A program made the position numbers and the translations under genes. Under the pieces are notes generated by a model. The model did no database searches. It was given only the letters and a program-made list of their open reading frames with translations, and was not told the DNA's origin. 64,000 nt of DNA from positions 29,140,001-29,204,000 of the forward strand of contig OZ024748.1 of assembly GCA_964016885.1 (NCBI GenBank), read 5' to 3'. This document shows positions 6,001 to 64,000 of this stretch, piece after piece; the stretch's first letter is position 1; each line of letters opens with the position of its first letter. The stretch is from Eledone cirrhosa (taxonomy: Eukaryota).

Positions 6001-9000
6001 TCACTAACTCTACCCTAAAACTACAGTAGTTAGAATCACTAACTCCACCCTGAAACTACAGTAGTTAGTATCACTAACTCCACCCTGAAACTACAGTAGT
6101 TAGAATCACTAACTCCACCCTAAAACTACAGTAGTTAGAATCACTAACTCCACCCTAAAACTACAGTAGTTAGTATCACTAACTCTACCATAAAACTACA
6201 GTAGTTAGTATCACTAACTCTACCCTAAAACTACAGTAGTTAGTATCACTAACTCCACCCTGAAACTACAGTAGTTAGTATCACTAACTCCACCCTAAAA
6301 CTACAGTAGTTAGAATCACTAACTCCACCCTAAAACTACAGTAGTTAGTATCACTAACTCCACCCTAAAACTATTTTAGTTAGTATCACTAACTCCACCC
6401 TGAAACTACAGTAGTTAGTATCACTAACTCCACCCTAAAACTACAGTAGTTAGAATCACTAACTCCACCCTAAAACTTCAGTAGTTAGTATCACTAACTC
6501 CACCCTGAAACTACAGTTGTTAGAATCACTAACTCCACCCTGAAACTACAGTTGTTAGAATCACTAACTCCACCCTGAAACTACAGTAGTTAGAATCACT
6601 AACTCCACCCTAAAACTACAGTAGTTAGTATCACTAACTCCACCCTGAAACTACAGTAGTTAGTATCACTAACTCCACCCTGAAACTACAGTAGTTAGTA
6701 TCACTAACTCCACCCTAAAACTACAGTAGTTAGTATCACTAACTCCACCCTGAAACTACAGTAGTTAGTATCACTAACTCCACCCTAAAACTACAGTAGT
6801 TAGTATCACTAACTCCACCCTGAAACTACAGTAGGTAGAATCACTAACTCCACCCTGAAACTACAGTAGTTAGTATCACTAACTCCACCCTGAAACTACA
6901 GTAGTTAGTATCACTAACTCCACCCTGAAACTACAGTAGTTAGTATCAATAACTCCACCCTGAAACTACAGTAGTTAGAATCACTAACTCCACCCTAAAA
7001 CTACAGTATTTAGAATCACTAACTCTACCCTAAAACTACAGTAGTTAGAATCACTAACTCCACCCTGAAACTACAGTAGTTAGTATGACTAACTCCACCC
7101 TGAAACTACAGTAGTTAGAATCACTAACTCCACCCTAAAACTACAGTAGTTAGAATCACTAACTCCACCCTAAAACTACAGTAGTTAGTATGACTAACTC
7201 CACCCTAAAACTACAGTAGTTAGTATCACTAACTCTACCCTAAAACTACAGTAGTTAGTATCACTAACTTCACCCTGAAACTACAGTAGTTAGAATCACT
7301 AACTCCACCCTGAAACTACAGTAGTTAGAATCACTAACTCCACCCTGAAACTACAGTAGTTAGTATCACTAACTCCACCCTGAAACTACAGTAGTTAGTA
7401 TCACTAACTCCACCCTAAAACTACAGTAGTTAGAATCACTAACTCCACCCTGAAACTACAGTTGTTAGAATCACTAACTCCACCCTGAAACTACAGTAGT
7501 TAGAATCACTAACTCCACCCTGAAACTACAGTAGTTAGTATCACTAACTCCACCCTGAAACTACAGTAGTTAGAATCACTAACTCCACCCTAAAACTACA
7601 GTAGTTAGAATCACTAACTCCACCCTGAAACTACAGTAGTTAGTATCACTAACTCCACCCTGAAACTTCAGTAGTTAGTATCACTAACTCCACCCTAAAA
7701 CTATTTTAGTTAGTATCACTAACTCCACCCTAAAACTACAGTAGTTAGTATCACTAACTCCACCCTAAAACTATTTTAGTTAGTATCACTAACTCCACCC
7801 TGAAACTACAGTACTTAGTATCACTAACTCCACCCTAAAACTACAGTAGTTAGAATCACTAACTCCACCCTGAAACTACAGTAGTTAGTATCACTAACTC
7901 CACCCTGAAACTACAGTAGTTAGTATCACTAACTCCACCCTAAAACTATTTTAGTTAGTCTCACTAACTCCACCCTAAAACTACAGTAGTTAGTATCACT
8001 AGCTCCACCCTGAAACTACAGTAGTTAGTATCACTAACTCCACCCTAAAACTATTTTAGTTAGTATCACTAACTCCACCCTAAAACTACAGTAGTTAGTA
8101 TCACTAACTCCACCCTAAAACTACAGTAGTTAGAATCGCTAACTCCACCCTAAAACTACAGTAGTTAGTATCACTAACTCCACCCTGAAACTACAGTAGT
8201 TAGTATCACTAACTCTACCCTAAAACTACAGTAGTTAGTATCACTAACTCTACCCTAAAACTACAGTAGTTAGTATCACTAACTCCACCCTAAAACTACA
8301 GTAGTTAGAATCGCTAACTCCACCCTAAAACTACAGTCGTTAGAATCACTAACTCCACCCTGAAACTACAGTAGTTAGTATCACTAACTCCACCCTGAAA
8401 GTACAGTAGTTAGAATCACTAACTCCACCCTAAAATTACAGTAGTTAGTATCACTAACTCCACCCTGAAACTACAGTAGTTAGTATCACTAACTCCACCC
8501 TGAAACTACAGTAGTTAGAATCACTAACTCCACCCTAAAACTACAGTAGTTAGTGTCACTAACTCCACCCTGAAACTACAGTAGTTAGTATCACTAACTC
8601 CACCCTAAAACTACAGTAGTTAGTATCACTAACTCCACCCTGAAACTACAGCAGTTAGTATCACTAACTCCACCCTGAAACTACAGTAGTTAGAATCACT
8701 AACTCCACCCTGAAACTACAGTAGTTAGTATCACTAACTCCACCCTGAAACTACAGTAGTTAGTATCACTAACTCCACCCTAAAACTACAGTAGTTAGTA
8801 TCACTAACTCCACCCTGAAACTTCAGTAGTTAGAATCACTAACTCCACCCTGAAACTTCAGTAGTTAGAATCACTAACTCCACCCTGAAACTACAGTAGT
8901 TAGTATCACTAACTCCACCCTGAAACTACAGTAGTTAGTATCATTAACTCCACCCTGAAACTACAGTAGTTAGTATCACTAACTCCACCCTGAAACTACA

Positions 9001-46478: not shown

Positions 46479-46633
46479 AAAAGGAAGAAAAGGAATATGG
46501 GGCGTTTACGTCAAAGAAGGCATAAGAAGAATCATCGGTTGACACAATTTATTTTAGCTCGTCAGGCTCAGAAAGAAGTGAGGAAACAAGAGGAGGAGGC
46601 TGTGCAATTGGATAAAGCTAGAGAAAGATTAAG
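46479..46633 (+). CDS. First visible coding exon of a SAFB/SLTM-like gene (start of charged coiled-coil region); 5' boundary uncertain
   Basis: Translates KRKKRNMGRLRQRRHKKNHRLTQFILARQAQKEVRKQEEEAVQLDKARERL(R). Donor AAG|GTTTGT at 46634 is phase 2, matching the next exon. Candidate 5' ends: weak AAG acceptor at 46478, TAG acceptor at 46557, or in-frame ATG at 46497. Confidence 0.6.
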
Positions 46634-46726
46634 GTTTGTTGAAAATTCTTTGACACTTGAATTTTTTAGTGTAAGGTTGCATGGTTGTATGCTTAAGAAG
46701 TTCACTTTACAACTATGTAGTTTTTG

Positions 46727-46822
46727 ATTCAGTTCATTGTACAGCACAATGGGTTAACTAAACCTCGGGTGGGCCAATGCTTTGTAAGTGAAGTGTGGTA
46801 GATGAATACTATGTTAAAGCTT
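46727..46822 (+). mobile_element. Degenerate SINE-like repeat fragment
   Basis: GATTCAGTT...CCTCGGGTGGGCCAATGCTTTGTAAGTGAAGTGTGGTAGATG resembles a common cephalopod SINE body. Recognised from memory, not searched. Confidence 0.35.
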
Positions 46823-46928
46823 ATCTAAAGGATTGTTGTTGGTTTTTGGTGATAGGTTTAACTCCTCATCAGTTGATGGTGTTAAATGACATGAAAATCA
46901 GAATCTGTAAAATATATTGAGTGGTATA

Positions 46929-47057
46929 TACATTCTGAGTAAAATCCCGTTGAAGTCAACTCAGGTGGATAAAATAAAAGTACCAATAGAGTGCTGGTGT
47001 CGATATAATCGACTTTCCCCTCCCTACGAATTGCCAGCCTTGCATCTAAATTAGAAA
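46929..47057 (+). mobile_element. 5'-truncated tRNA-derived SINE, same family as 51493-51678
   Basis: Shares TCTGAGT..AAATCCCG, GATAAAATAAAAGTACCA and AATTGCCAGCCTTG..CTAAA.TAGAAA blocks with the copy at 51493-51678. Confidence 0.7.
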
Positions 47058-47327
47058 TCCTATTTATGTTGTTTGTTTAAATTGTTTTAACTACCTCATG
47101 GTGTATTTATTTTTAATATCTCATAATCGAGTGGGTGGTTTGAACACCATCAAAAACCTTTGACTCTACCTAGGGTCGAAGAAATTGTAGCAAGCAGTGA
47201 CACTATTTTATCACGGTGGAGTAATTTGGTCGTGCTTTGTCACTCGCCAGCCCTTAGGGTTGGTGGCGTATGAATACAAAAGATGACTTCCGCCCAGCAG
47301 TGGCTTCACGCCTTTTATCAGTTCTAG

Positions 47328-47555
47328 CTAGCAATTGCACTTGGCATTTCGTCAACACCAGCACCTCACAAGTGGCTTTCCTGGTCAATGCACCATCTTT
47401 CAAAACTACCTAGCAGTTGCGTTTGGCATTTCATCAACACCATTACCTTACATTTAGCTTTCCCGGTCGATGAACCATCTTTCACAACTACCTAGCAGCT
47501 GTGCTTTCCATTTCGTCGGCACCAGAACCTCACAAGTGGCTTTCCCAGTCAATGG
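47328..47555. repeat. 82-bp tandem repeat, ~2.8 diverged copies, probably part of an unclassified transposable element
   Basis: Units start with CTAGCA at 47328, 47410 and 47492 and share CATTTC.TC..CACCA..ACCT.ACA...GCTTTCC..GTC.ATG. Confidence 0.85.
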
Positions 47556-48961
47556 CTTCCTTACTCCTATGATTTTGCTCTCTAACAATGAGAGTAGTTT
47601 AATTATACGGCTTTTTGGAGATTTACTGTAACTGACAACTTGGTTCCAAACTGCTTGCCTTTAAGAGATTTGCCATTACATGTCAGCTTTGTTACACAAA
47701 ATCTGTGTACCACTTCACACCCTTTGTACATGCGTCCATGTCAAGCAAAAATAAATCTTTATTATGTTTAACTATGCCTTCTGATCTTTCCAACTGGACT
47801 AAACATAAACACGCAGCCTTACATCTCTATCTTCTTTAAGGATATAATCTCCGCTACCAATACAGAATACAGCTAAAGTAATCTCACTTAAAAATGATAT
47901 GTTGGAATAGCTTTCCTCAGTGTCTTTTCAAGATCCAAGGAAGAGCTCATCTCTTCCTTGCAAGTTAAAGAAATACCTATCAAGCATACACTTCTTCCAC
48001 TCTTGCTGCACTGAACTGTTATTAGTGTTGGTGTTAATGGTTAACTTCAGGTTAACTTTAACAAACAGGCTTATGAACAAAGGCATTCCAGTCGTGACCA
48101 TCCTAGCTTTTTAGGGTTATCCAGAACTACCTTATGTAATATGTCTGTTCTTTATGCTAATGGCATGTTATTTAATAGAGATTTCTTGGGGATTGAGTGA
48201 TCACCGAGAGGATTTATAAATTGTATCTGTACATGTGTATTTCAATCAGGCTGAGTGATCGCAGAGACACCAATAATTGTACCTCTACAAGATATGTATT
48301 TAGTGTTATGTGGATGTTATTTTGTGACTTAAATGTCTTTGCCCAGAAAACAGTCTAACACCAATAATGTTGTTCCATCATCTGACACAGTGATTTTATT
48401 ATCTTGTCTAACTGTCACTTGATTCTCTTTCCCTGGGAATAAAATAAGTAGTTTATATATTAACCCTATATCAATAGGCTTTTCTTTATACTCCTTACCA
48501 TTAAACATTTTATTACCATATTTCTAATGAAATACACTTTATTTAAATTAATCAATAAAGAAATTTGAGGGATTTACTAAAATTCTTATTATTACTAAAA
48601 ACAGTAATTTAACATGATTATTATATAAAGTTGTTGGAAGATTATAATTTAGGTAGGAAACACTTTAAAACATGGGGTTATCTTTCACAGAACCTGAGCC
48701 CAAAAGGGCTAAAAAAATAATGTTAAGATATCAACAACCTCATCTGATATTTCTAATATTTAAGGTTAATAAATTGGCATATAAAAAAAATACATATTTT
48801 TTCCTAAATTCCAAAGAAAGTATGTTTGATATTTTTCAGAGTATTATGAGAATGTATAGACTCAGTTCAGTGTGTGATAGGGACTGGGAACATTTTCATT
48901 CTATTTTGATTTTTTCCAAGTATTTCTTGGTGATGTCTTTATATTGTTTTATACTTCTCAG

Positions 48962-49057
48962 GCTGGAGAGAAGAAAGCTGGAGAAAGAAAAACTATTAAG
49001 ATATAGAATGGAAAAAGAAATTCTTCAAAAGGAAAGGCTGAAAGCTGAGATGATGAG
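48962..49057 (+). CDS. SAFB/SLTM-like gene, 96-bp coiled-coil exon (copy A)
   Basis: Polypyrimidine tract and CAG acceptor, GTGAGT donor at 49058, phase 2-2. Translates (R)LERRKLEKEKLLRYRMEKEILQKERLKAEMM(R). Confidence 0.85.
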
Positions 49058-49155
49058 GTGAGTAAATCAGAAAATATTCTTACTATACCATTATGAACTT
49101 AATGGTATCTTATTAATTATCTTTGACATTATTTAGTCAATTGAGTTAATTTACT

Positions 49156-49245
49156 ACTCGCCGTCAAGGCTAACGAACTAACTGATAGAATACAGCATGG
49201 CAAAGTAGCCGATAGAATACAGCAACAATAATATTAATAATAGCC
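49156..49245. mobile_element. 90-bp insertion flanked by a 21-bp target-site duplication
   Basis: AGTCAATTGAGTTAATTTACT occurs at 49135-49155 and 49246-49266. The insert has an (AAT)-rich end. The paralogous site at ~49679-49698 is empty. Confidence 0.75.
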
Positions 49246-49516
49246 AGTCAATTGAGTTAATTTACTTATTCCTCTCCCTCCTCTTGGCTACCTTTTCTAT
49301 TTGTTTTGTTTATTGGTTGGTTTTGGTTGTTGGCAATAGGATCTTTTAAATAGATTTTACTTTGTGGAAAGTAGTCTGAAATGTAATTCATATGTGTGAC
49401 ATGATAACAACACTCAACAATATGTTATCAAATGTATAAAAATATATTGTAATGTAAATCTGTTGAAAAAATATATAATTCTTCCTAAATTCCAAACAAA
49501 ATATGTTGTTCTTCAG

Positions 49517-49612
49517 GTTAGAGACAATAAATCTGGAGAAAGAAAAACTATTGAGATATAGATTGGAAAGTGAACTTCTTCAAAAGGAAAGACTTAAAGC
49601 TGAGATGATGAT
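49517..49612 (+). CDS. SAFB/SLTM-like gene, 96-bp coiled-coil exon (copy B, tandem duplicate)
   Basis: TTCTTCAG acceptor, GTGAGT donor at 49613, phase 2-2, no stops. Translates LETINLEKEKLLRYRLESELLQKERLKAEMM, 25/31 aa identical to copy A. Confidence 0.75.
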
Positions 49613-49839
49613 GTGAGTAATTCAGATTATTTTCTTACTATATCATTATCAACATTTTAATTGTTTTTGACATCATTTAGTCAATTGAGTTAATTACTTA
49701 TTCCTCTCCCTCCTCTTGGTAACCCTTTCTATTTGTTTTGTTTATTGGTGGTTTTGGTTGTTGGCAATAGGATCTTCTGAATAGATTTTACTGAGTGGAA
49801 AGTAGTCTGAAATATGATTCATATGTGTGACATGATAAC

Positions 49840-50041
49840 AGCATGTGGTTTAAGGTAATTTTCTCTGTTAAAGCAGAGATTAGCCTTGCTGAGCTCCACA
49901 ACAAGCTTCATATTCATGATGGGCTCCTTCTTCTGGCAATATTTTATGGCTGGATGTCCTTCTTGGTGCCAACCATTTTAGTCACCCCTTTACAACATGC
50001 AAAGATACAGAGTACCTATTTTAAACTAGATACACACAGTT
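49840..50041 (-). mobile_element. ~200-bp insertion containing an RTE 3'-end-like motif, between 12-bp direct repeats
   Basis: TGACATGATAAC at 49828-49839 and 50042-50053. Internal GGCTGGATGTCCTTCTTGGTGCCAACCA is the reverse complement of the motif in the RTE 3' UTRs at ~53330 and ~62795. Confidence 0.5.
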
Positions 50042-50340
50042 TGACATGATAACTTATGTATGAAAAAATATTGTAATGAAGATGTGTAGCAGCCATAATA
50101 AACCAGTGGTAGTGGGGATCTTTGACTCAGCAGTCATCTTGCATCTTAAACAACCACTAGCTATATGTAAACTACACTGAGGAAGTATTTATGTAGTCAC
50201 TCAGCCTGCTAGTAATAACAGCCAAATCTCACCATGCCACCTTAAAAAGATGAAGGATACATCTTCTGGCTGCTTATCCACTACTGCAGTTGTTTACTAC
50301 TATTAACTTTATTTTGTTGTTTACTGTTCCTTGTTTTTAG

Positions 50341-50484
50341 GCTGGAAATGAGACATTCCATGAAAAGACCTTTTGATCGAAGCAACGTACGTGAGGAAGA
50401 TCTCTGGGAGGAACCTAAACGTTCCAGGATAAGCAATTCCAACAACTCCTTGAGGTTTGAACTTCCATTCCAGAATGAATCTCA
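50341..50484 (+). CDS. SAFB/SLTM-like gene exon
   Basis: TTGTTTTTAG acceptor, GTAAGT donor at 50485, phase 2-2. Translates LEMRHSMKRPFDRSNVREEDLWEEPKRSRISNSNNSLRFELPFQNES; the KRP..R...D.W...KR pattern resembles the post-coiled-coil motif of SAFB proteins. Confidence 0.85.
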
Positions 50485-50526
50485 GTAAGTTATGTGTGAT
50501 GAATGATAATATTTCTGTCATTGCTT

Positions 50527-51470
50527 TATTATTGTTGTTGTTATGGCTGTTATTGATTTATTGTTACTGTTGTTGTTATGGCTGTTATTGATTTATTGTT
50601 ACTGTTGTTGTTATGTCTGTTATTGATTTATTGTTACTGTTGTTGTTATGTCTGTTATTGATTTATTGTTACTGTTGTTGTTATGTCTGTTATTGATTTA
50701 TTGTTACTGTTGTTGTTATGTCTGTTATTGATTTATTGTTACCGTTGTTGTTATGTATGTTATTGATTTATTATTACTGTTGTTATGTCTGTTATTGATT
50801 TATTGTTACTGTTGTTGTTATGTCTGTTATTGATTTATTGTTACTGTTGTTATGTCTGTTGTTGATTTATTGTTACTGTTGTTGTTATGTCTGTTATTGA
50901 TTTATTGTTACTGTTGTTATGTCTGTTGTTGATTTATTGTTACTGTTGTTATATCTGTTGTTGATTTATTGTTACTGTTGTTGTTATGTCTGTTATTGAT
51001 TTATTGTTACTGTTGTTATGTCTGTTGTTGATTTATTGTTACTGTTGTTATATCTGTTATTGATTTATTGTTACCGTTGTTGTTATGTATGTTATTGATT
51101 TATTATTACTGTTGTTATGTATGTTATTGATTTATTATTACTGTTGTTATGTCTGTTATTGATTTATTGTTACTGTTGTTGTTATGTCTGTTATTGATTT
51201 ATTGTTACTGTTGTTATGTCTGTTATTGATTTATTGTTACTGTTGTTATGTCTGTTGTTGATTTATTGTTACTGTTGTTATATCTGTTGTTGATTTATTG
51301 TTACTGTTGTTGTTATGCCTGTCATTAATTTATTGTTACTGTTGTTGTTATGTCTGTTATTGATTTATTATTACTGTTGTTGTTATGGCTGTTATTGATT
51401 TATTGTTACTGTTGTTATGTCTGTTGATTTATTGTTACTGTTGTTGTCTGTTATTGATTTATTATTACTG
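50527..51470. repeat. T/G-rich minisatellite with 35/32-bp unit GTTATTGATTTATTGTTACTGTTGTT(GTT)ATGTCT, ~28 copies
   Basis: Direct reading: units at 50549, 50584 and onward. Length variants differ by one GTT. Confidence 0.95.
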
Positions 51471-51492
51471 GTATGACCGGTATTACTGGTAT

Positions 51493-51678
51493 GGCAGTGG
51501 ATTGGCAGTATCGGTAGAGGGTAGGACGCCATGCTTTCCAGCATAGTTACGTCCCTTTATGATCTGAGTTCAAATCCCGCCGAGGTTGACTTTGCCTTTC
51601 ATCCTTACGAGGTCGATAAAATAAAGTACCAGTAATGCACTGGATAATTGCTGGCCTTGTGCCTAAAGTAGAAACAAT
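51493..51678 (+). mobile_element. tRNA-derived SINE with internal Pol III promoter boxes
   Basis: A-box-like TGGCAGTATCGG and B-box-like GAGTTCAAATCC. Flanked by the direct repeat TATTACTGGTAT (51481-51492 and 51679-51690). A second copy lies at 46929-47057. Confidence 0.8.
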
Positions 51679-51767
51679 TATTACTGGTATGACCTTATAA
51701 ACACCCTTTTGCCTTTCTTACCTTTGTGTATGTTTTTTCATTTCATCCCCCTTTCTCTCCCTCTCAG

Positions 51768-51920
51768 CTACTATGAATATGATCATATTGGTGGTGAAAG
51801 ACATGTGGAACTTTATGAGAGAGAAATGAAGAGAAGGGAGATGGGTCCTATCCGAGATATTCGAGACAGAGAGGACAGACAATCTGATGACCGGTCTCGA
51901 ACAGATGAAAAACTTGGAAG
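51768..51920 (+). CDS. SAFB/SLTM-like gene exon (R/D/E-rich)
   Basis: Long pyrimidine tract and CAG acceptor, AG|GTAATT donor, phase 2-2. Translates YYEYDHIGGERHVELYEREMKRREMGPIRDIRDREDRQSDDRSRTDEKLG(R). Confidence 0.88.
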
Positions 51921-52434
51921 GTAATTTTTGTTTTTCCTTTTTTTATCTTATATTAGTTTTTATTTATTTTTCTTTAGGTATTTATTTATATATTTATGTG
52001 TGTGAAAGATCATATATACATATATAAATATACTCACACATACATCTCACTTCCTCCATCATCCCACACCGTACAAAATTCTTTCCTCGGTCACTTTTGC
52101 ACGGTTAAGATGTGTCTTGGTCTTCTCGTCAATATTCGCAAGTTCTTATGTTCAAATGAATCATTGACTTGATTTCCTCATTTTTTCCTCTCTTTACATT
52201 GTCTCACCATTCATGTTTGTTTACCTGTCGCTCTTTCTCCACCCAATTCTTTTTATCCCAATAACTTATTTTAGTTATTGTATCGCGCTAGTCTGAGGTA
52301 TCTGGTCTTTAATGTGAAGAAATACCTATGATGGCTAGTAGACCACTGAAGATGGGTAGTCCTGGATTCTATTTCTAATTCTTCATTTTATTTATATATT
52401 ACATTTGCAACAACACAGCATGCCATTTTTCATT

Positions 52435-52436
<2 letters not shown>

Positions 52437-52466
<30 letters not shown>
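52437..52466. repeat. (TA)n microsatellite
   Basis: Direct reading; abuts the 5' end of the RTE fragment. Confidence 0.95.
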
Positions 52467-52469
<3 letters not shown>

Positions 52470-52470
<1 letters not shown>

Positions 52471-53481
52471 TAACTCAAGACGGGTTCAATGAGTCTCTAA
52501 TGCTCACTACCTCCCAGAAACCCAACAGTGACTATAAAATTATTACTGGCGATCTTAATGGTCATGTTGGACAACATTGTGATGACTATGATGGTGTCCA
52601 TGGGGGTTATTGGTTTGGTACTAGAAATGAGGAAGGCTTCAGGATCCTGGAATTCTGTGATGCAAATGACCTGATTGTCTGCAACACAAACTTCAAAAAA
52701 CATTAGTCATTTGATCATGTATAGATCAGGGGAGCACGCCAGCCAGATAGACTTTATCCTTACTAGGAAACGAGACAAAGTGTCTGTTTTGAACACTAAG
52801 ACGCTCCCTCATGAATAACGCGCCTCCCAACATAATTTAATAGTAAGTGACTTCATAGTCAGAACCAAACGTAATTGCCGCCAGAGAATACCTTAAGGAG
52901 AAGATTATGCTGAAATGTTGAAGGTATCTGGAATGGTGGGACATACTATGGTCACCCGGATAGTAAACCAAGTAATACAGAATGGGGTCATACCAAATCA
53001 CTAGCGTAGCAACATCATCATCAACTGTTACAAGGGCAAAGGAGACGCCCTGGATAGAGGAAACTATAGGGGTATTAAATTAGTTGACCAAATCATGAAA
53101 GTCACAGAAAGAGTTATTACTCAACTGATTAGAGACCAAATTGATCTAGATGAAATGCAATTTGGGTTTGTGCCAGGTAAAAGTACCACGCATGCTCTTT
53201 TCCTTGTACGGCAATTGAAGGAGAAGTACCTGGCTAACAGTAAACCCTTCTACACCTTAATCTGGTGGGCTCTTAGAAAACTAGGGGTGTAGAAGACATG
53301 GTGAAAAGGCTTCCAGTCCACACTGTAAGTGTGGTTGGAGCTAGGAAGGGCCTCCAGCTGTAAAAGAAACCTGCCAGAGACGCTTCCGTGTGAGCGAGAC
53401 ATGGTCTCCCGCAGCAAATGGAACAAAACCGTCTAACACATGCTAGCGTGGAAGATGGACGTTAAACGATGATGATGATGA
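52470..53481 (+). mobile_element. Dead, internally deleted RTE-clade LINE (AP endonuclease fragment, RT N-terminal fragment, 3' UTR)
   Basis: Endonuclease motifs GDLNGHVG, RNEEG.RILEFC, SQIDFILTRK and SQHNLIVSD. RT motifs YKGKGD...NYRGIKL and QFGFVPGKSTT. In-frame stops are present. Ends GGACGTTAAACGATGATGATGATGA. Confidence 0.92.
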
Positions 53482-54017
53482 CATACACACATGCATAACA
53501 CATCCTAATGCCAACCAATTTGCAGAGTTTACTAGCTGTATTCCATCATGCTACATACACTTGTGAGGTTGTCTTGTCAACAGCAGGCTAAAAGGTACCT
53601 TCCCACCCCATGTAGTCTCCAATCTCTCATTACTTTTAGTGTTATTGTTGCCATCCTTGAACCAGTGGACCTTCATCACAATCCTGTGTCATTCCTTGAC
53701 AATGTTCAGGAGATTATTCTTCACAAATTCCTCACATGTCTTACATAGTCTCTCTTTTTCATGTGTTCTATTTATTTCAAACATTCAACACTTTTTTTTT
53801 ATACAACCTTCGCCCTCCTTCCACATCACATGCCTGTACCAACACTAAATCCCATTCCACTTCTACTCAGCTTTTCTCTCAGCTCTCTTCTGCTCTATCA
53901 TTCAGGCACACTTACATTTAACATGCAATGAATGTGTAAATCTTTATATGTACATTTATATTTGTTTATATGTATTTATACATATACATGCACAAAGCAA
54001 GTTTTGGAGTTGTAAAT

Positions 54018-54515
54018 GTATACACCAACCTCTATAGAACAGTGTTGATGTATACACCAACTTTTATATAGGACAGTGTTGGTATATACACCAACCTCTA
54101 CAATATGACAGTGTTGGTATATACACCAAACCCTATATAACAGTGTTGACATATACACCAACCTCTATATAGAACATTGTTGACATATACATCAACCTCT
54201 AGAATATGACAGTGTTGGTATATACACCAACCTCTATATAGAACAGTGTTGACATATACATCAACCTCTATATAGAACAGTGTTGATATATACACCAACC
54301 TTTATATAGAACAGTGTTGGTATATACACCAACCTCTATAATATGACAGTGTTGTTATATACCCCATCCTCTGTATATGATAGTTTTGGGACATATAACA
54401 ATGTTGGTGAATACACTAACCTATATATGTTAGTGTTGATGTATGTACATCAACCTCTATACATGACAGTGTTGATGTATCTATATATGACTGTTGATAT
54501 ATACACCAACCTCTC
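54018..54515. repeat. 34-bp minisatellite (ATATACACCAACCTCTATATAGAACAGTGTTG(G/A)(T/C)), ~14 copies, decaying rightwards
   Basis: GAACAG recurs at 54241 and 54275. Internal inverted repeat GTTGGT-ATATAC-ACCAAC. Confidence 0.92.
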
Positions 54516-54609
54516 TAAGTGTATCAAAATATCTCTTGTAGAATATGCTTCTAAACACTTTCTTGAAGTAAATTGCTAGCTTTGCATCTGATTTAACCCT
54601 TATATTTAG

Positions 54610-54743
54610 GATGCCCTATGAATTCAGAAGAGATATGGGAGTAAACCAGGAAAGATATATTGGCCCTGAATCAGGACAAGGAGACTCTGACAGACAAAAT
54701 ATATCAGCTCATGACAGGCTGGGCCGAATGAGAAATCCTTCTG
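54610..54743 (+). CDS. SAFB/SLTM-like gene penultimate coding exon
   Basis: TTTAG acceptor, G|GTATGT donor at 54744, phase 2-1, bridging the neighbouring exons exactly. Translates MPYEFRRDMGVNQERYIGPESGQGDSDRQNISAHDRLGRMRNPS. Confidence 0.82.
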
Positions 54744-54914
54744 GTATGTTTTTATTGTAGTCTCACTATCAACATCATTTAATGTCTGCTTTCCCTGTTA
54801 CATAGAAATGTATGTTTGTATTCCTTCTTCAGAAGATAGAATGAGAAATAAAAGATTGAAATAGAAAGAGAGTGAGTGAGAAGAGGAAGAAACATTTTTT
54901 TAATTTTAAAATAC

Positions 54915-55407
54915 AGGATCTTTTCGGTTTGATTGCCACCATTAAAGTTTATTGAACATTTTTTAATTTGGCACATATTGATGTAGTTTTCCAAGCTGAA
55001 TTGCTGGAGTTGTTTCATTTTTTCCAGAAAAATGTTTTTAAAAGGTTATTTAAGTTTGATATTTTTCACCCAGTCAGGAATCAGGATTTGGAAGCTGTCA
55101 TCCCCAGTTTACACTTGTTACTATGGAAACAGTCTTCAATATATTGTCAACACGTGCTTCCTTGCAGACAAAACAGTTCTTATGTTCCGCTTGTTACTAT
55201 GGAAACAGGCATGAATATATCTGTGGCTTACGATTGGCTAAAATTACCCAAAATGTTCAATCTTTAATTGCTAATAACTCTTTATTTATTGATTTATAGC
55301 GAAAATGATTTTCATGACATTCATTAGCCTATAAATGTGTATTGTTACACTGAATATGAAATCAATTCGAAGAGAAATGCCGCTGGCAGTCAAACTGAAA
55401 AGATCCT
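54915..55407. mobile_element. MITE / non-autonomous DNA transposon with ~24-bp terminal inverted repeats
   Basis: Left AGGATCTTTTCGGTTTGATTGCCA (54915-54938) and right TGGCAGTCAAACTGAAAAGATCCT (55384-55407) differ by 2 mismatches. No transposase-like ORF. Confidence 0.8.
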
Positions 55408-55635
55408 AAGTACATGTGTATTCTGTCACCCAATTTTGGGAATGCTGGTCAGTGGGTATCTTAGGTATTATAGAGGTTTAGCAAGGGAGATAATTATTGT
55501 GTATTTTGAGTATGCATATGTGTGTAGATTTGTCTGTGCAAAGCTGTGAAGGATCGGCATTGGACCGTAACTGAGTTGGCTGGTGTGAGAATATATATAT
55601 GTATATATATATATTCATGTGTATATATATATATA

Positions 55636-56420
55636 TCATCATCAACATCATTTTACGTCCGCTCTTCCCTGCTCGCAAGAGTGGGACAGGTCTTATTCAG
55701 CACAGCATCTCTCCACTCGTCACGGTCCTTCGTCAGCTCCACCGTGAGCTTCAACGATCTGAGGTCTGTTCTCACCACCTCCGCCCATGTTTTTCGTGGT
55801 CTACTTCTATCACGTCTTCCTTCAACTGGCATTTCCTGGCACTTCTTCACCCATCGGTCATCCTCCATGCACATCACATGTCCATACCACCTCAGTCTCC
55901 TCTCCCGTACACTACATTCTATCCTTCTCAGACACAGTTACTCTCTCAACACATTCATGCTAGGTCGTTCACGCACATTTACACTGCGCATCCAACAAAG
56001 CATGCTTGCCTCATTCTCTCCAGCCGTCGCATATCCTCTGCAGTTGCTGCCCATGTCTCACTACCGTGCAGCATTGCGCTCCTCACACAGGCATCATACA
56101 ACCGGCCTTTCATACTCAGGGAGAAACCCTTCTTCGTCAGCAGAGGAAGCAGCTCCCTAAACTTCTTCCAACCCCTCCTTATTCTAGATACTATGGCCTT
56201 GGAACACCCTCCTCCCATGCTAATCTGATCTAGGTACCGGAAGCTATCCACCACTTCTATAGCACCCGCCTGCATTTGAAAAATGTGTCTATCAATGCGA
56301 CGTCTACTGTCTAATTTCCCTGTACATCTACTGCATACATATTTCTCCCTACCTGTTAGTTTGCCTGCTATCCCGCTACATCTCTTATGTACCCAGGATC
56401 TGCATTGTGTGCATTTTATA
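55636..56420 (-). mobile_element. 5'-truncated RTE LINE (PHD-like Cys/His finger and RT C-terminal region), frameshifted, embedded between (TA)n tracts
   Basis: Minus-strand peptides IKCTQCRSWVHKRCSGI..YVCSRC, VVDSFRYLD, GWKKFRELLPLL, LHGSETWA and RPRKTW.EVV. (GAT)n tail at 55636-55650. Confidence 0.92.
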
Positions 56421-56441
56421 GAATATATATATATATATATA

Positions 56442-57043
56442 TATATAGAATTCACAGGAATCAAAGTTATGTTCAAACCATTTATTAGCTTACAATTGTT
56501 TCATCCAAACCGAGGCTTGGAGTCTTCGGAGCATTTTTCAATGTTTGTATACATACATGACCTCCTTTCCAACGCAAGAGACACACAGATACATATGTAT
56601 ATGTATATGTATATGCTTAAAGTGCTTGTATTGCATATAACACCCTGCCGCACAATAATCATATATAAATAAGACACACGTGCATGCCCCACGTGTAACT
56701 AATGCATACAATAACTACTACAACTGACTAACAAACTATCCTCTTGCATTATCCACGTTAACTGCCGATGTTGTATTTTAATTTTAATTTTGCTTTGATT
56801 CTGTTTTAATATGATTTTAATTTTTGAATTTAAATTGCTATACAGAAATAATATAATATATGTCACCCCACTGTACATCAATATATACATATGTATCTGT
56901 ATGTCTCTTGCGTTGGAAAGGAGGTCATGTATGTATACAAACATTGAAAAATGCTCCGAAGACTCCAAACCTCGGTTTGGATGAAACAATTGTAAGCTAA
57001 TAAATGGTTTGAACATAACTTTGATTCCTGTGAATTCTATATA
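56442..57043. mobile_element. Long inverted repeat (~160-bp arms, ~280-bp spacer), probable Penelope-like element remnant with inverted terminal repeat
   Basis: 56442-56602 is the reverse complement of 56883-57043 with 2 mismatches. TA-rich flanks. Each arm carries a minimal hammerhead motif followed by AATAAA. The inverted repeat is certain; the Penelope assignment is inference. Confidence 0.7.
56953..56997 (+). ncRNA. Minimal type I hammerhead ribozyme motif (U4C core variant); antisense twin at 56488-56532
   Basis: GCT / CCGAAGA / C-TCCAAAC-CTCG-GTTTGGA-T / GAAAC-AATT-GTA / AGC. Stem I is GCT:AGC, stem II is 7 bp, stem III is the palindrome ACAATTGT, and the cleavage triplet GUA is at 56992-56994. 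Confidence 0.65.
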
Positions 57044-57266
57044 ACTGCTCTGTAGAACAACTGATGTTATTACATTGAGCTATTTATCTTACTGGTAATA
57101 AGGTAGTAATAAATTACTGTCTTTCACTGTTTAGGGTTTAAAATATATATAACTATAAAAAGTTTTAATATATACATAACCATAAATAGTATCCTTAATA
57201 CTATATATATATATATACATATATATACAGCTTGATATATATATATAGATATAGAGAGAGAGAGAG

Positions 57267-57553
57267 AGAAAAAAGATGAAATCGAAAATGCAACTGGAGT
57301 CTTATTTTTTTTTTAAATATATATATTTATTTGGTTCCTTTACCAGTTTCGTAGTTCTTCTGCTTTTCAAAAGTAGAGTTGAGATGGAGGGTCTGTGGTT
57401 TTTCTCACATCTGAGAAAAACCACAGACCCTCCATCTCAACTCTACTTTTGAAAAGCAGAAGAACTGCGAAACCGGTAAAGGAACCAAATAAATATATAT
57501 ATTTTTTTTTTAAATAAGACTCCAGTTGCATTTTCGATTTCATCTTTTTTTCT
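57267..57553. repeat. Near-perfect ~287-bp palindrome (4-nt centre CATC at 57408-57411), part of an insertion spanning ~57237-57638
   Basis: The ~140-bp arms are reverse-complementary apart from a T-run and a few substitutions. The insertion is flanked by the 20-bp direct repeat ACATATATATACAGCTTGAT (57217-57236 and 57639-57658). Confidence 0.93.
57446..57481 (+). ncRNA. Minimal type I hammerhead ribozyme motif with U3-A8 core; degenerate antisense twin at 57338-57373
   Basis: CTT / TTGAAAA / GCAG-AAGAA-CTGC / GAAAC-CG-GTA / AAG. Stem I is CTT:AAG, stem II is 4 bp, stem III is the palindrome ACCGGT, the GUA triplet is at 57476-57478, and AATAAA follows just downstream. Confidence 0.6.
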
Positions 57554-57648
57554 TTATATTTTCACTCGTGTATGACACCTCGGTTATTTTTCATTTTGTA
57601 AAAAAAAACCTCACTTTCTAATATATATATATGTATACACATATATAT

Positions 57649-58195
57649 ACAGCTTGATGCCCTTCCTAACACCAACCATGTTTACAGTGTGGAACTGGAT
57701 GGCCCATTATGAGGAGGTTCTGGCCAGTTGGCCACGCCATACTCTGCTTACATCGGAACCATAATTTGGGACCTAGGTGGGGCCACTATTTGGGAGGTTG
57801 GGCCAGTTGTTCGCGCCAAATCTTACTCATAAAGGAGCCATGTTACCAGGTGGTCCTGATATGTTTGTTAATGATGAAACCCACTCCATGTTCGTATGTT
57901 TGGTGTCACCACGATTTGTGGCCTTCATCTGTAGTTGTCTCACTAAATCCAGTCCAGCCCTAATCTGGCATCTTATTTGACTGTTTGTGTATTATGGTAT
58001 TTCAGTGGACTTTAGAATGCTTGGCAGTGCCCATTTTCTCTCCAACCTTCAAGTCCCTCACTAAGTTTAGCCTGCCAGCAGAAGCAGTTTCCAGGGTGTA
58101 GCTGGAAAATATTTTCAAAGCCAAAAATGAGAGTAGGGTAAAAGCCAGTGTACCCGTCCATCCCTAAGGATGCTGCTACCGGACATCAAGGTACT
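57649..58195 (-). mobile_element. Possible RTE-derived non-autonomous element or fragments
   Basis: 57649-57698 is the reverse complement of the RTE 3'-UTR motif (CCAGTCCACACTGTAA..GGTTGG..TAGGAAGGGC.TC.AGCTGTA). The adjoining more GC-rich block is unassigned, so the extent is uncertain. Confidence 0.35.
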
Positions 58196-58492
58196 CTCTC
58201 TACACCCAAGTAACTATATAGATTTTCAATAGATATAGTGCTCTCTTACCACTTATTGAATATTTTGCTACACACACATCTTCCTTCAGCTGTCTTTTAT
58301 ATACTTCTCTCAATACAGCCCTCTCTTAATCCTGTTTCTTCCCTCACCCTTATTTCTCTCCCTATCCCCGCCTCTCTCTACTGTTTTCGATACTCTCCTC
58401 TTTACACAATTATAACTACTCTATTCTAAATTGTTCATTGTTTTCATATTTGTGATTTATTTGAAAATATAATCTTTTTGTGTTCCTGTTAG

Positions 58493-58872
58493 TTGGTGGA
58501 CCTGACCAAAGACCTCGATGGAGTTCTGGCAGCATGGGTAGGAAAGTGGACAGATGGTCTTACATGCATGGAGACATGGACAACAGTGGTATGAACAGAT
58601 CAAATGACCAGTGGCATGGGAACAACATAAACTCAACAGGTCGTGATGCCAGTGGGGCATTTGTTGACCATGGTAATAGAGGTGGTAATAGTGGAGGGAT
58701 GGTGCAAAACATGGGACCTGGTAACATGTATGGCAACCCTCAGTCACAGGGTGGGCTTACAATGGTTTCACATGGTGGTGGAAGTGGTGATGGTGGTGGT
58801 GGTGGTAATAATATGAGTGGACATATACAGGAACCTCGCTTTGATGCTTATAAAGTTATGGGATCAATGTGA
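58493..58872 (+). CDS. Terminal coding exon of the SAFB/SLTM-like gene (Gly/Ser/Asn/Met-rich low-complexity tail)
   Basis: TTCCTGTTAG acceptor, phase 1 matching the previous donor. Translates VGGPDQRPRWSSGS...GGGGGNNMSGHIQEPRFDAYKVMGSM*. The terminal RFDAYK motif is recalled from invertebrate SAFB-family proteins. The seven exons total 1158 nt, i.e. 386 codons including the stop, with no internal stop. Confidence 0.88.
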
Positions 58873-59326
58873 AAATTAAACAGAACTTTGCTACAGGGCA
58901 GGCTGTATGACTAGGGGAAGCAGATGGAATCTGAAGCAGTTTATAAAACCCTACCCTGCAGCTATATATCACATACATTCTCCATTCCAATTATGAGTTA
59001 ATGCTTGGTTCCAGAATATCCAATCATTTTTCTGACCTTCCATATGTTAACACACACATACATATATAAACAAACACAACTTTCTATCTTCACATTATCC
59101 ATTTCCCAATTATACTGTCTTAATATATTTCGTGTGTTGCTATAGTTTATTTCTATAACCTCATCCAACACACACACATCACACAGTTGAATGTATTAAT
59201 GAAAAAGGAGGAGGAGGAAGAGAAATCAGATAGATTGTATTTATGAAATAGGGGGAGAAGGGAAAAAGAGCAACTATAGAATGTAATAATGAATTGGAAG
59301 AGACCACAAAATGTAATATATGGAAA

Positions 59327-59332
59327 AATAAA
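59327..59332 (+). promoter_or_regulatory. Candidate polyadenylation signal AATAAA for the SAFB-like gene
   Basis: About 455 nt after the stop codon and followed by a GT/T-rich tract (TGTTGTTAATGTTGTTTGTT, ~59351-59370). Confidence 0.55.
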
Positions 59333-59533
59333 ATTTATTCACATAAATGATGTTGTTAATGTTGTTTGTTACTCTTTTTTACCTTTTACCTTTGTTTTTC
59401 TCTTTTCTGTTCTCCATTACTTGGGACTCCTATCTTCAAAGCACCCAAGAAATTTCCTACAAGATGCAATTAGGCAATTTCTGTACGTAATCAGCCAAAG
59501 AAATAAAAATGAGCAATACCAATTTGATGTTTA

Positions 59534-60370
59534 TGAAGTGTGCCAGAAAAGAAACAGGACTGGGGTTGCAAAAAAAATATTTCAAATACAAACTACAAGT
59601 TTTTCTCTTCAAAATAAGTCCCTTTCCCATCCTCCTCTATCACACCTCCATGCACACTTGGAAGGATTCCCCACAGCCTTCTTCATGGCTTCCACATTTT
59701 GAAAATGGTCCCTTTGATGACTCTCTTGATCTTGGGGAAAATGAAAAAGTCTGATTTGGTTTCAAAACACTCGAGGATGTCCTGACACACCTGCATGCAC
59801 CGCTCCTTCTGGTCGTCATTCAGCAACTTCAGCGCCATCTTCGTACAGATCTTCCGCATGCCCAAATGTTTGGTGAAATCTTCCAAATGCTGTTGTGGTT
59901 CATGGCCATCTCACATGCAATCAGTTGTAAGGTCAGCCGACAATTTCCACACACCACCTGCCCAACGTTGGCCTCAGTCATGCTTGTTGAAGGCCTTCTG
60001 CTCATGGCGTTGTCTTGCACATTTTCGCGTCTCTCTTTGAACTTTTTGTGCCACTTGAAAACCTTTGAGTGTGACATCATCTCATTTCAATATGCTTGCT
60101 GCAGTATTCTGAGTGCTTCTGATGAAGTTTTCGCTAGTCAAACCAGAAATTTCAGGTTGGTTTGTTGCTCTGTGCCCATTATTCAATGGCCTAAAATTGG
60201 GGAGCTGTTAACAAAAGCCTGTGAAAAAACATACAATGGCTGCAGAGAGCTTAGATTGCAGTTATGTACTCCCCGGAAATTATGTCACATGATGACACAA
60301 TGTGCTAATCCCTACCCCACTCATAGCTCACACAGCACTTTAATTCCTGTTACTTTTCTGATACTCAACA
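59534..60370 (-). mobile_element. Internally deleted mariner transposon with transposase pseudogene
   Basis: 28-bp imperfect TIRs (59534-59561 and 60343-60370, 21/28 match) with TA on both sides. Minus-strand peptides VFKWHKKFKE..RPST, LGMRKICTKM..KLL..QK.R and DFFIFPKIK. The catalytic region is missing and frameshifts are present. Confidence 0.9.
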
Positions 60371-61039
60371 TATATGATCTATTTAATACAAGAAAATGAT
60401 TGCAATTGACTTAATTGAATGTAAAATTAAATTAAGTTGGTAGTTAATGTCATTGTGTACAGCAATTGTTGAATTTCTGCGAAACTTAATAGAAACTGAA
60501 TACAAAAGAAAGCCAGGTTTCCAAATGAATCTTGTGAATTTATAACGCTGAACAATGAAATCTGCATATGTTGAGGACAAAGACAAATATGTTTCTTTTA
60601 ATTCGAGGTCAGCATTGATTAAATAGATTTATGATCAAATTAATTCAAGCAATGGCCATCTTTTTTTGCAGGTATGTAGAAATAAGGTGTGATTTGAGTG
60701 ATATTGAGCTGTTGTTTCTAGCGGTTCAGGCGACCATGTAGAAATTCTCTGATTTAGACCAAGGGTGTTTTCATGAGCTGTGAAAGAAATTCAGTCATAT
60801 TAAACTGATATGGATGATGTATGAAAGCATGCATACCAGATTTTTCTATTGGAAATGAAAGTAATTTGGAGGGTTTTTACACCAAGTTAGAATGGAAGGT
60901 ATAATTTAAATAAGAGAAAATGATGACTGTCAAATGAAGAAAAAAACATTCTGGGGAGTGAAGACCCTCATACACCACAACAAAAGATGTTAGAGATTCC
61001 CTCCAACAATTTTTGAGGAAACCCAACACACTTGCAGCA

Positions 61040-61172
61040 ATGCTTTATATGGCTTTAAGTCGTACAAGAAGGAAGGAAAACTTAAAATTTCTTTTGAAAG
61101 AAACAAGCAATCATGGCTTGTTAGTTGTGGATACATTTTTCACAAAAAAAATTTATAATAAAAGAATTATTA
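61040..61172 (+). mobile_element. Helitron RepHel (PIF1-like helicase) C-terminal fragment, partly duplicated at 61481-61569
   Basis: LYMALSRTRRKENLKFLL...FFTKKIYNKRII resembles the helicase motif QLYVALSRV and the terminal TKNIVYKEIL pattern. Confidence 0.6.
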
Positions 61173-61574
61173 AACTAAAAACTTGGTTTTGTACCCTTTT
61201 TATATATAAAATATTACAATTAACTGCCGTCATTTTTACAGCACAGTAATATATAATGTTACTAAAATACTCCTAAGTATATAACCATGGCTACCAGAAT
61301 GTAAATATTTCAGTTTTAGCACACACCCTCACATTATGTATTTATAAAACTCAACAAATGGCTCAGATGTATGATGTAAAATGCATGGATTTCACCAAAT
61401 ATTTGTGGGAAGGGGACCACTTTTTGTTACTATATTACTAGTGAAATACACTAATACTTGAAGCATTACTTGACAAAGATTTATATGGCTTTAAATCGTA
61501 CAAGAAGGAAGGAAAACTTATTTTGAAGGAAACAAGTAATCAAGGCATGTTAGTTGCAGATAAATTTTTCCGAA

Positions 61575-62101
61575 TTGAAGATAGTGAGTTTGGCTTTTAT
61601 GCCTGACTCCCTTCTGATTACCAAATGCTGAAGCTGGTGCATTACTGCGCCGGCTCTTGCAATTCTTGCAAGAGCTGGTGCAGTAATTCAGCCTCTTGCC
61701 TTCCATCACTTGTGAACATGGCCCTGAGATACTTCTCTACAGGCTTCAATGGAACTCCATTCACATGTAAAGTGCACTGCGCAGGCTTCCTTGGGAGTTA
61801 CGAGTGTCTCAGTTTTCGCAGTACTGATTTTCATTCCAACCATGAAGCACTCTGCATCAAACCTATCAAGCGCATGTTGTAGATCACCTTCTGTTGAGTT
61901 AAGTAACACCATGTCATCAGCAAATTCCAGCCGACTGATTTTACACCTGCCAGTCGTGATACCACTTCCAACCTGGCTGTGCATGTCAATCCTGTTCATG
62001 TAAATAATGAATAGTAGCGGTGACAGTACACACCCTTGGCGGAGTCCGACTCCCACATTGAATAGTTTCGATTTAGCACCATTTATCCAAACACAAATAC
62101 T
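61575..62101 (-). mobile_element. RTE-clade LINE reverse transcriptase fragment (downstream part of an element split by a nested insertion)
   Basis: GVGLRQGCVLSPLLFIIYM, FADD and GMKISTAKTE motifs; frameshifted downstream. Confidence 0.92.
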
Positions 62102-62940
62102 TTGGCATTCGCATCTATTGTAGAAACAGTAGATAACTTCTGCTATTTAGATGACCAAATTAGCAGCAGTGGTGGGTGTTCTGAAAGTACAGTAGCCAGA
62201 GTAAGAACGGGATGGAGGAAGTTCAGGGAGCTTCTACCACTGCTGGCTACAAAAGGCTTCTCCCTCAGAATTAAAGGCAGACAGTATGATGCATGTGTAC
62301 ATACAGCTATCGGTGCTGTGTGCAGAAGACTTGCATAGATTGGAAAGAAATGAAGCCTGCATGTTCCGATGGATGTGTAATAGTAATATGCGAGAACAGC
62401 AAAGGATAAATGAACTGAGAGAGAAACTAGGCATAAGAGGAATCAAATGCTATGTGCAGGAGAGGAGATTGCGTTGGTATGGACATGTGATGCATATGAA
62501 AGATGACAGCTGCATAAAAAATGCAGTGCGCTCAAAGTCGTTGGAAGTCTTGGAGTGAGGAGACCGAGGAAGACCTGGGATGAGGTGATAAAAGTCGACC
62601 TTACCCAATTGCACCTCTCAAAGGAGATGACACATGACTGGGATCTTTGGCGATTTGCAGTAATACAGAAGATCTGACTTCCTATGAGCGCAAGCTTAAG
62701 CATATGTACAGTATGCCCCACTCTACCCCCCAGTCCACACTGGACACATTATAAAAGACACGGCAAAAAGCACCCAGCACACACTGTCAATGTCGTTGGT
62801 GTTAGGAAGGGCATCCAGCCAGAAACACCCCTATACAAGTGAGACACGGTCACCCGACCCAACTTGCCTCTAAATGGGAGTCATCTAACCCATGCTAGCA
62901 TGGAAGATGGATGTTAATCGATGATAATGATGATGATTGA
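62102..62940 (+). mobile_element. 5'-truncated RTE LINE nested inside another RTE; same family as 55636-56420
   Basis: Peptides VDNFCYLD, GWRKFRELLPLL, RRLRWYGHV and RPRKTWDEV. 3' UTR resembles 53310-53481. (GAT)n tail at ~62920-62940. Confidence 0.92.
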
Positions 62941-64000
62941 GACATCAGGGCAACAAGAAGCTGACCATCAGTCCCATACTCCTACACAACCTTCTACAGC
63001 AGGTCCTAAGGAATCCGGTCATATGCCTTTTCAAGGTCGACAAAACAAGAATATACCTCTTGCCAATTCTCCCATGATTTATCGAAGACCCGCTGCGCTA
63101 TGAATATTTGGTTGGCTGTGCTGTGTCCAGGGCAAAAGCTGCACTGCTCATCAGATAGCTTGGACTTAACAATCTCCCTGCCAGACACTAAGCATAGATT
63201 TTACCGGGCAGGCTTACCAATGAGATCCCTCTTGTCTCCCTTTTTGAAAATTAGGATTATCCCTCCCAATTGTCATTGTTTAGGTGCCTTTCTAGAGATC
63301 CAGGCCATCCGGCACACAAGTCAGCGAGAGAATATCTTCTCTATTTAAGGCTTTTAATATCTCGGGCCAGATTTCATCTTTCCTAGCGGCCTTGCCACGT
63401 TTGAGCTCTTTAACTACTCTTGTGACCTCAGCCTCTGAGAGATTAGTCACCGCTCCCAGATGTTTAGGAGATCAGCAAAATATTCTCTCCACCCCATGAG
63501 GATGCATCTCTCTGAAGAGAGGAGAACCCCAGACGCATTCTTGATAGTAGGTGTGGAAGAGGACTTCTTATTGTGAAGTCAGCAGATGGTTTGCCAGAAC
63601 ACTTTATTTGCTCATCTAAAATCAAATTCCAGCTTAACCACAAAGTCCCCCATTTCTCAACTGGACACCTTTACTGTCTCTGCTGCGATTCTTCGTGCCT
63701 GCTTGTACTACAAGTGCAAGAAAGAGGACTTATTTTCAAGATAAACTTTGTAGGCTTCCTTCTTTGCTTTGATGCCATCTTTGACCTCTTGGTTAAATCA
63801 AGGAATTCTCCTGCTATCTGGTGCCACACCAAGCCTCACACACCACAACAAAAGATGTTAGAGATTCCCTCCAACAATTTTTGAGGGAAGCCAACACACT
63901 TGCAGCATTGCTGTAGGAGAGCAACCATGGATAGAGGGAAGAGACATATGAGCATTCATATAGACCTAGACTCCCAAATTGTTTTGGCAATGTAGTCAGG
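62941..64000 (-). mobile_element. RTE-clade LINE, upstream part of the element continued at 61575-62101 (RT N-terminus and linker), degenerate
   Basis: EQCSFCPGHSTANQIF, CFVDLEKAYDRIP and NQEVKDGIKAKKEAYK; stops and frameshifts. The right boundary is uncertain. Confidence 0.85.

Follow-up and report, generated by a model that had tools for sequence, protein, structure and literature searches.

Probable insertions of two Penelope-like element families as the source of two hammerhead-bearing foldbacks in an intron of Eledone cirrhosa

The window, that is, the whole stretch of 64,000 nucleotides that was analysed, is occupied from position 1 to 46082 by an array of a 35-nt satellite, which stops ~400 nt upstream of the earliest exon-like segment of a host gene on the + strand (46498–58872). 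The exons of this gene are charged and rich in Gly, Met and Asn and include two near-duplicates of 96 nt, at 48962 and 49517; its C terminus presumably resembles SAFB-like proteins. Contigs of run X4 (kind of run unrecorded) join 54743 to 58493 over a GT..AG joint, and the two exons around this intron share one frame with a single stop at the end. The last exon had no matches in Pfam or Atlas, and exon differences among the runs hint at a paralogue of the gene. Minisatellites lie in the introns at 50529–51470 (period 35) and 54019–54520 (period 34). LINE-like RT pieces are found at 52470–53440 and 61700–62700, and another LINE-like RT fragment, of very high copy number, occupies 55636–56412 on the - strand, immediately left of two foldbacks, here called E1 and E2, whose features are as follows:

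54744..58492, + strand: last intron of the host gene, with a spliced GT..AG joint; holds E1 and E2
56442..56611, - strand: E1 short end, a tailless copy of the pLTR that is inverted and 5'-truncated
56488..56532, - strand: E1 mirror hammerhead motif, intact, from the descriptor scan
56615..57204, + strand: E1 main arm, a long 5'-truncated pLTR end with tail, of a family with Hydra-clade motifs
56953..56997, + strand: E1 minimal type I hammerhead motif with U4C core; predicted cut after 56994
57044..57204, + strand: E1 tail, ~160 nt, which continues into the ORF start in the full-length copy
57217..57236, + strand: 20-nt direct repeat beside E2, left copy (repeat family D8)
57267..57411, - strand: E2 inverted arm, short end, beginning at the recurring 5' boundary of the E2 family
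57338..57373, - strand: E2 mirror hammerhead motif with two substitutions, which disrupt the palindrome and a pair in stem II
57412..57625, + strand: E2 main arm, a minimal pLTR unit of a Neptune/Nematis-type Penelope-like element; long end with tail
57446..57481, + strand: E2 minimal type I hammerhead motif with U3-A8 core; predicted cut after 57478
57560..57625, + strand: E2 tail, ~66 nt, which continues into the ORF start in the full-length copy at L227
57639..57658, + strand: 20-nt direct repeat beside E2, right copy

The initial annotation had described two foldbacks of common design in a single intron, and the arms, descriptor matches and spliced joint bear this out. The E1 arms (56442–56611 and 56874–57043) are 170 nt long and 97% complementary, and those of E2 (57269–57407 and 57412–57550) are 98–100% complementary in two blocks; both right arms extend past the symmetric part, to cover 56615–57204 in E1 and to reach 57625 in E2. 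The 20-nt direct repeat around E2 is likely a target-site duplication and takes in part of the TA tract adjoining E1, which suggests that E2 arrived after E1. None of the contigs of the runs links the two flanks of either insertion directly, and no empty allele was seen among them. Counts of A>G and T>C differences were similar in the contigs of all four runs, although contigs are unable to reveal editing.

Both right arms carry on their + strand the annotated core, palindromic stem III, GUA site and AATAAA, and both motifs include the conserved core with its 3-8 pair, stems I and II and an NUH site. The E1 motif combines a U4C core, a stem II of 7 bp that follows a C.U opposition, a 3-bp stem I and, within stem III, a palindrome of 6 nt (GUA at 56992–56994, AATAAA at 56999–57004). 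In E2 the core is U3-A8, a 4-bp stem II contains G10.1-C11.1, stem I again has 3 bp and the palindrome has 4 nt (GUA at 57476–57478, AATAAA at 57488–57493). Both U3-A8 (PMC4209133, PMC3088659) and U4C (PMC3088659) are described natural variants. The GUA triplet opens a string resembling a 5' splice donor in both families (56992–56997 and 57476–57481).

A hammerhead descriptor run over both strands of the 64 kb window returned three matches (+ 56956, + 57449 and - 56529), which are the two right arms and the E1 left arm. The annotated mirror copy on the - strand of each left arm is therefore intact in E1, whereas the E2 mirror fails the descriptor and is degenerate. With a stricter descriptor, 835 kb of genomic loci yielded 194 motifs, mostly of the E1 and E2 families by choice of loci, and 381 kb of shuffled loci yielded none. 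Rfam gave no hammerhead match over 50000–64000 at E values up to 10; its microRNA matches there were set aside as generic hairpin matches under the gathering score. Across 70 E2 arms, 1 of 490 core letters and 12 of 560 stem II letters differ, a variation too small for covariation. Four hammerhead families in the sampled loci keep the same architecture with unrelated stems.

The arms belong to high-copy families. A 29-mer from E1 has 307 exact matches in the genome, and a first look with the E1 arm gave 3659 candidates, the best 40 of which are 98–100% identical. The E1 main arm is 96–98% identical to pLTRs on either side of an RT+EN ORF at L061 and L062, where the order is inverted arm, pLTR, tail, ORF, long 3' region, pLTR and tail, making a pLTR-ORF-pLTR partial tandem. 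While the E1 ORF pieces had no relevant Pfam match (0 relevant hits for 5 of 6 proteins) and a PDB sequence search returned nothing, 13–69% of the members of neighbouring Atlas groups carry RVT_1 or HTH_animal. Translations at L061 contain DKT, a CxCX5C linker, and CxxC and CxH around a conserved E and N, with no CCHH. This pattern, with (TA)n insertion, is that of the Hydra clade (PMC8557442, section 11), to which E1 is provisionally assigned by motifs; RWR stands at the place of RWK, and the unit differs from the clade in being longer than 3 kb owing to the long 3' region. The full-length E1 copy also has a branch-point-like motif and an AG just before the ATG (L061, ~6575–6600), which together with the donor-like string would suit a 5' intron overlapping the E1 ribozyme region in part.

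For E2, 11,061 sites in the genome match exactly a 35-mer that spans the ribozyme, and its reversed control matches none. The E2 unit lies downstream on the same strand in 23 of 25 loci chosen by their GIY-YIG end, and L227 is a full-length copy (pLTR-ORF-pLTR) in which pLTR and tail lead into the ORF start. Pfam matches of the ORF are GIY-YIG at E = 9.9e-7 and RVT_1 at E = 8.7e-7, the latter falling slightly below the cut-off, and its translations contain GxKF, DKG, a CX4CxxC linker and a CCHH endonuclease with a C-terminal GIY-YIG. These motifs resemble the Neptune/Nematis clades, within which E2 is provisionally placed by motifs; on sequence style we presume Neptune over Nematis. No spliced joint was found at the E2 pLTR-ORF junction in contigs, which can show the presence and not the absence of an intron. 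A GIY-YIG ORF beside E2 at L064 was discarded as linkage evidence, as it belongs to another family.

That both E1 and E2 are Penelope-like elements (PLEs), of two families, is virtually certain, and the linkage of both to RT/EN ORFs upholds the annotated Penelope origin of their minimal hammerheads and inverted arrangement. The two insertions had been called unrelated, which is true of their DNA (no similarity beyond a 12-nt match of AT repeat) but not of their ancestry: both come from PLE families whose RTs are distant homologues and align weakly (24% over 175 columns, E = 0.0014). E1 or E2 copies at L063, L064, L070, L106, L137 and L224 have as neighbours other PLE families, which carry RT/EN ORFs or minimal hammerheads of their own and are often nested in (TA)n. 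One neighbouring PLE family has both U4 and C4 cores, and L063 also contains LTR-retrotransposon-like ORFs.

We then compared insertions across copies, using for E2 the first 80 of 100 listed matches, merged into 60 loci with 1.5–2.5 kb flanks. At least 34 of the 60 loci hold a head-to-head pair (distant partners being missed), and 26 have no head-to-head partner inside the sampled flanks. Among 36 E2 pairs, 32 combine a long and a short end, 3 a long and a truncated end, and 1 two short ends, one arm of which lies at the locus edge; none combines two long ends. The hammerhead lies entirely within both arms in 27 of the 36, and at a two-base subfamily difference the arms match in 26 of 27 pairs, where shuffled pairs average 15.3. 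Solo copies have a long end (23) or a short end (9). The first 30 listed E1 matches represent 24 insertions, 13 of them paired by eye and all of these long plus short. Long ends are followed by TA repeats in 138 of 148 cases, and flanking direct repeats, mostly TA-rich, occur in 6 of 37 pairs, against a mean of 1.2 in the controls. For PLE insertions, PMC8557442 and PMC3846280 describe a truncated copy in inverted orientation and a tail on one side.

In both families the foldback junctions vary from locus to locus, which means that the palindrome is rebuilt at each insertion. This largely refutes a reading of the foldbacks as fixed palindromes, whether mobile in the manner of MITEs or active as genes for small-RNA precursors. 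Such units would account for the long near-perfect hairpins, for the microRNA matches that stay below the gathering score, and for a 220-nt E2 unit that stands far above the ORF in summed contig depth, a quantity that is not copy number. The ends are asymmetric, however, and in longer copies the arms continue into RT/EN ORFs, and we regard this reading as highly improbable. One E1 pair recurs with the same junction and flank at two loci 585 kb apart (L002/L006 and L003/L005, G000:C2); we rejected it as a moving palindrome and attribute the shared junction and flank to segmental duplication. One E2 pair is locally duplicated at L217/L218.

How the inverted arm is made is a separate question. 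One possibility is snap-back synthesis, in which the same elements would form the inverted arm by self-priming of one strand, with endonuclease resolution at the short end. It fits the same foldback anatomy, including the common subfamily variants and the prevalence of long plus short ends, and PMC3846280 reads junction palindromes as self-priming. Solo copies with either end speak against it, as does PMC11167929, which reports that both strands are extended and that RT starts at two sites mapping to the borders of the tail. We hold snap-back to be a minority possibility and find double priming on an uncleaved template somewhat more probable than the other routes together, although this step is borrowed by analogy from in vitro work on a Poseidon element, which belongs to another clade.

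The state of the template was approached through the 5' ends of the E2 copies. Both E2 arms share a sharp boundary ~40 nt upstream of the core, where 54 of 104 sampled arms begin within a single 15-nt stretch. Genome-wide patterns counted 1787 copies beginning in a 3-nt window there and 213 beginning at the cut site; three control windows gave 104, 146 and 177. As these patterns are not alike in composition and also catch point and indel variants, only the roughly tenfold peak at the boundary is firm. There is accordingly no sharp excess of E2 copies starting at the cut site, and 18 of 30 inspected matches among the 213 were true truncations. Contigs of two runs have loose ends at the same three boundaries in E2. 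E1 starts are scattered, with no sharp 5' boundary.

We infer that the E2 boundary is the 5' end of the RNA and that most templates were uncleaved, and the ends of the paired arms together with their common variants point to one uncleaved template per insertion. This agrees with PMC11167929, in which hammerhead cleavage was unnecessary for insertion and cleavage needed protein. In 6 of 9 foldbacks picked for a cut-site start, the partner arm by eye also starts at or downstream of that site; these picked loci could reflect a minority of cleaved templates, and symmetric deletion of the foldback tip could give such double starts as well. Both E2 arms start at or just below the predicted cut site at L175/L176, L177, L190/L191, L167, L168 and L169. 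It is conceivable, though on balance doubtful, that the foldbacks are fossils of a PLE replication intermediate, one RNA being copied twice from the tail borders as far as a fixed 5' end that lies ~40 nt before the core, with most templates uncleaved and the small class with both arms at the cut site marking rare cleavage in vivo.

The initial annotation had gone further and proposed a self-masking design that spares the host transcript from being cut, or a switch from which editing or helicases could release the ribozyme. If such masking were selected, insertions with an antisense arm that blocks cleavage or the sense AATAAA would be tolerated in introns and enriched among sense intronic copies. 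The pairing it supposed is indeed predicted: with the left arm present, the modelled stem II probability falls from 0.7–1.0 (0.88–1.0 in E1 and 0.73–0.79 in E2) to 0, and pairs in which both arms span the whole hammerhead are common. Tandem retrozymes, moreover, are reported in bioRxiv 10.64898/2026.07.22.740005 to be depleted from Xenopus genes. Even with the left arm absent, however, predicted stem I probability is at most 0.48 and mostly <0.05, and stem III of E1 is <0.1, so that what is predicted is passive masking of a monomer fold that is hardly populated. In PMC4209133, single minimal hammerhead motifs do not cleave and dimers cleave at a low level, and U4C reduces activity according to PMC3088659. 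The E1 and E2 palindromes differ, which would make pairing of one with the other through stem III impossible.

The layout itself is the standard product of PLE integration and follows from geometry alone. Whichever way a head-to-head pair is inserted, its antisense arm is transcribed first, and this order requires no selection. The same inversion is described for Naiads, which carry no canonical hammerheads (PMC8557442), and dual minimal hammerheads on opposite strands, 100–700 bp apart, are described in PMC4209133. About half of the sampled copies lack a masking arm, and divergence from the column majority was equal in paired arms (1.76%) and solo copies (1.74%; p = 0.91, 59 paired and 30 solo, from loci chosen on an exact hammerhead match). 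A literature search found no paper on point for a masking role of PLE inverted arms or for PLE start sites, most subscription journals and supplements lying outside it. The sampled copies thus give no sign of a selected self-masking design, which we consider very unlikely.

We conclude, with a probability of about 0.85, that the foldbacks are separate short PLE insertions of two families, each comprising a hammerhead-bearing pLTR end and an inverted truncated copy of it, and that the inversion was likely made by integration and not selected to shield host RNA. In the sequence of events that we favour, a GIY-YIG endonuclease would cut both strands within a (TA)n tract, and reverse transcription would be primed from both ends, starting at the two tail borders. 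Both cDNAs would copy back through the uncleaved hammerhead toward the RNA 5' end and would then be joined head to head. E1 would have inserted first and E2 later, into the TA tract beside it, with 20 nt duplicated. A long hairpin is the predicted fold of either insertion in the host pre-mRNA; it would passively bury a ribozyme whose monomer is in any case expected to have almost no activity.

The locus is ordinary, holding two of thousands of dead PLE stumps, and it is the family statistics that bear, modestly, on how PLE inverted arms are made and on the role of the hammerhead. The long plus short ends, the matching arm variants and the sharp 5' boundary are countable constraints on mechanism. 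Thousands of long hairpins of this kind would likely be a source of dsRNA in host introns. Selected masking would have been a new principle of host tolerance for ribozyme-bearing elements, and nothing that we found points there.

Compared with known systems, E1 and E2 resemble the insertion unit of EN+ PLEs (PMC8557442, Fig. 2; PMC3846280) in their head-to-head arms, one-sided tail, (TA)n targets, hammerhead within the pLTR and pLTR-ORF-pLTR masters. They differ from it in tail length, ~160 nt in E1 and ~66 nt in E2 versus 30–40 bp in described EN+ PLEs, and the copies in the window carry no ORF. Their short stem I and palindromic stem III are those of the minimal type I PLE hammerheads in PMC4209133, among which the U3-A8 variant of E2 and close opposite-strand pairs also occur. 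E1 departs from the usual PLE hammerhead in U4C and in the C.U opposition that replaces G10.1-C11.1, and both families are homogeneous (~2% divergence), unlike the highly variable PLE hammerheads of that study. Non-LTR retrozymes (bioRxiv 10.64898/2026.07.22.740005) are similar in that they, too, are short and non-coding, carry type I hammerheads and are related to pLTRs. We rejected this identity for E1 and E2: no tandem array was found at the window site, and E2 neighbours <5 kb apart among the first 100 listed matches were head-to-head in 23 cases, tail-to-tail in 2 and on the same strand in 1. Retrozymes form head-to-tail tandem arrays that allow dimer cleavage, whereas E1 and E2 lie head to head, with one sense ribozyme per strand.
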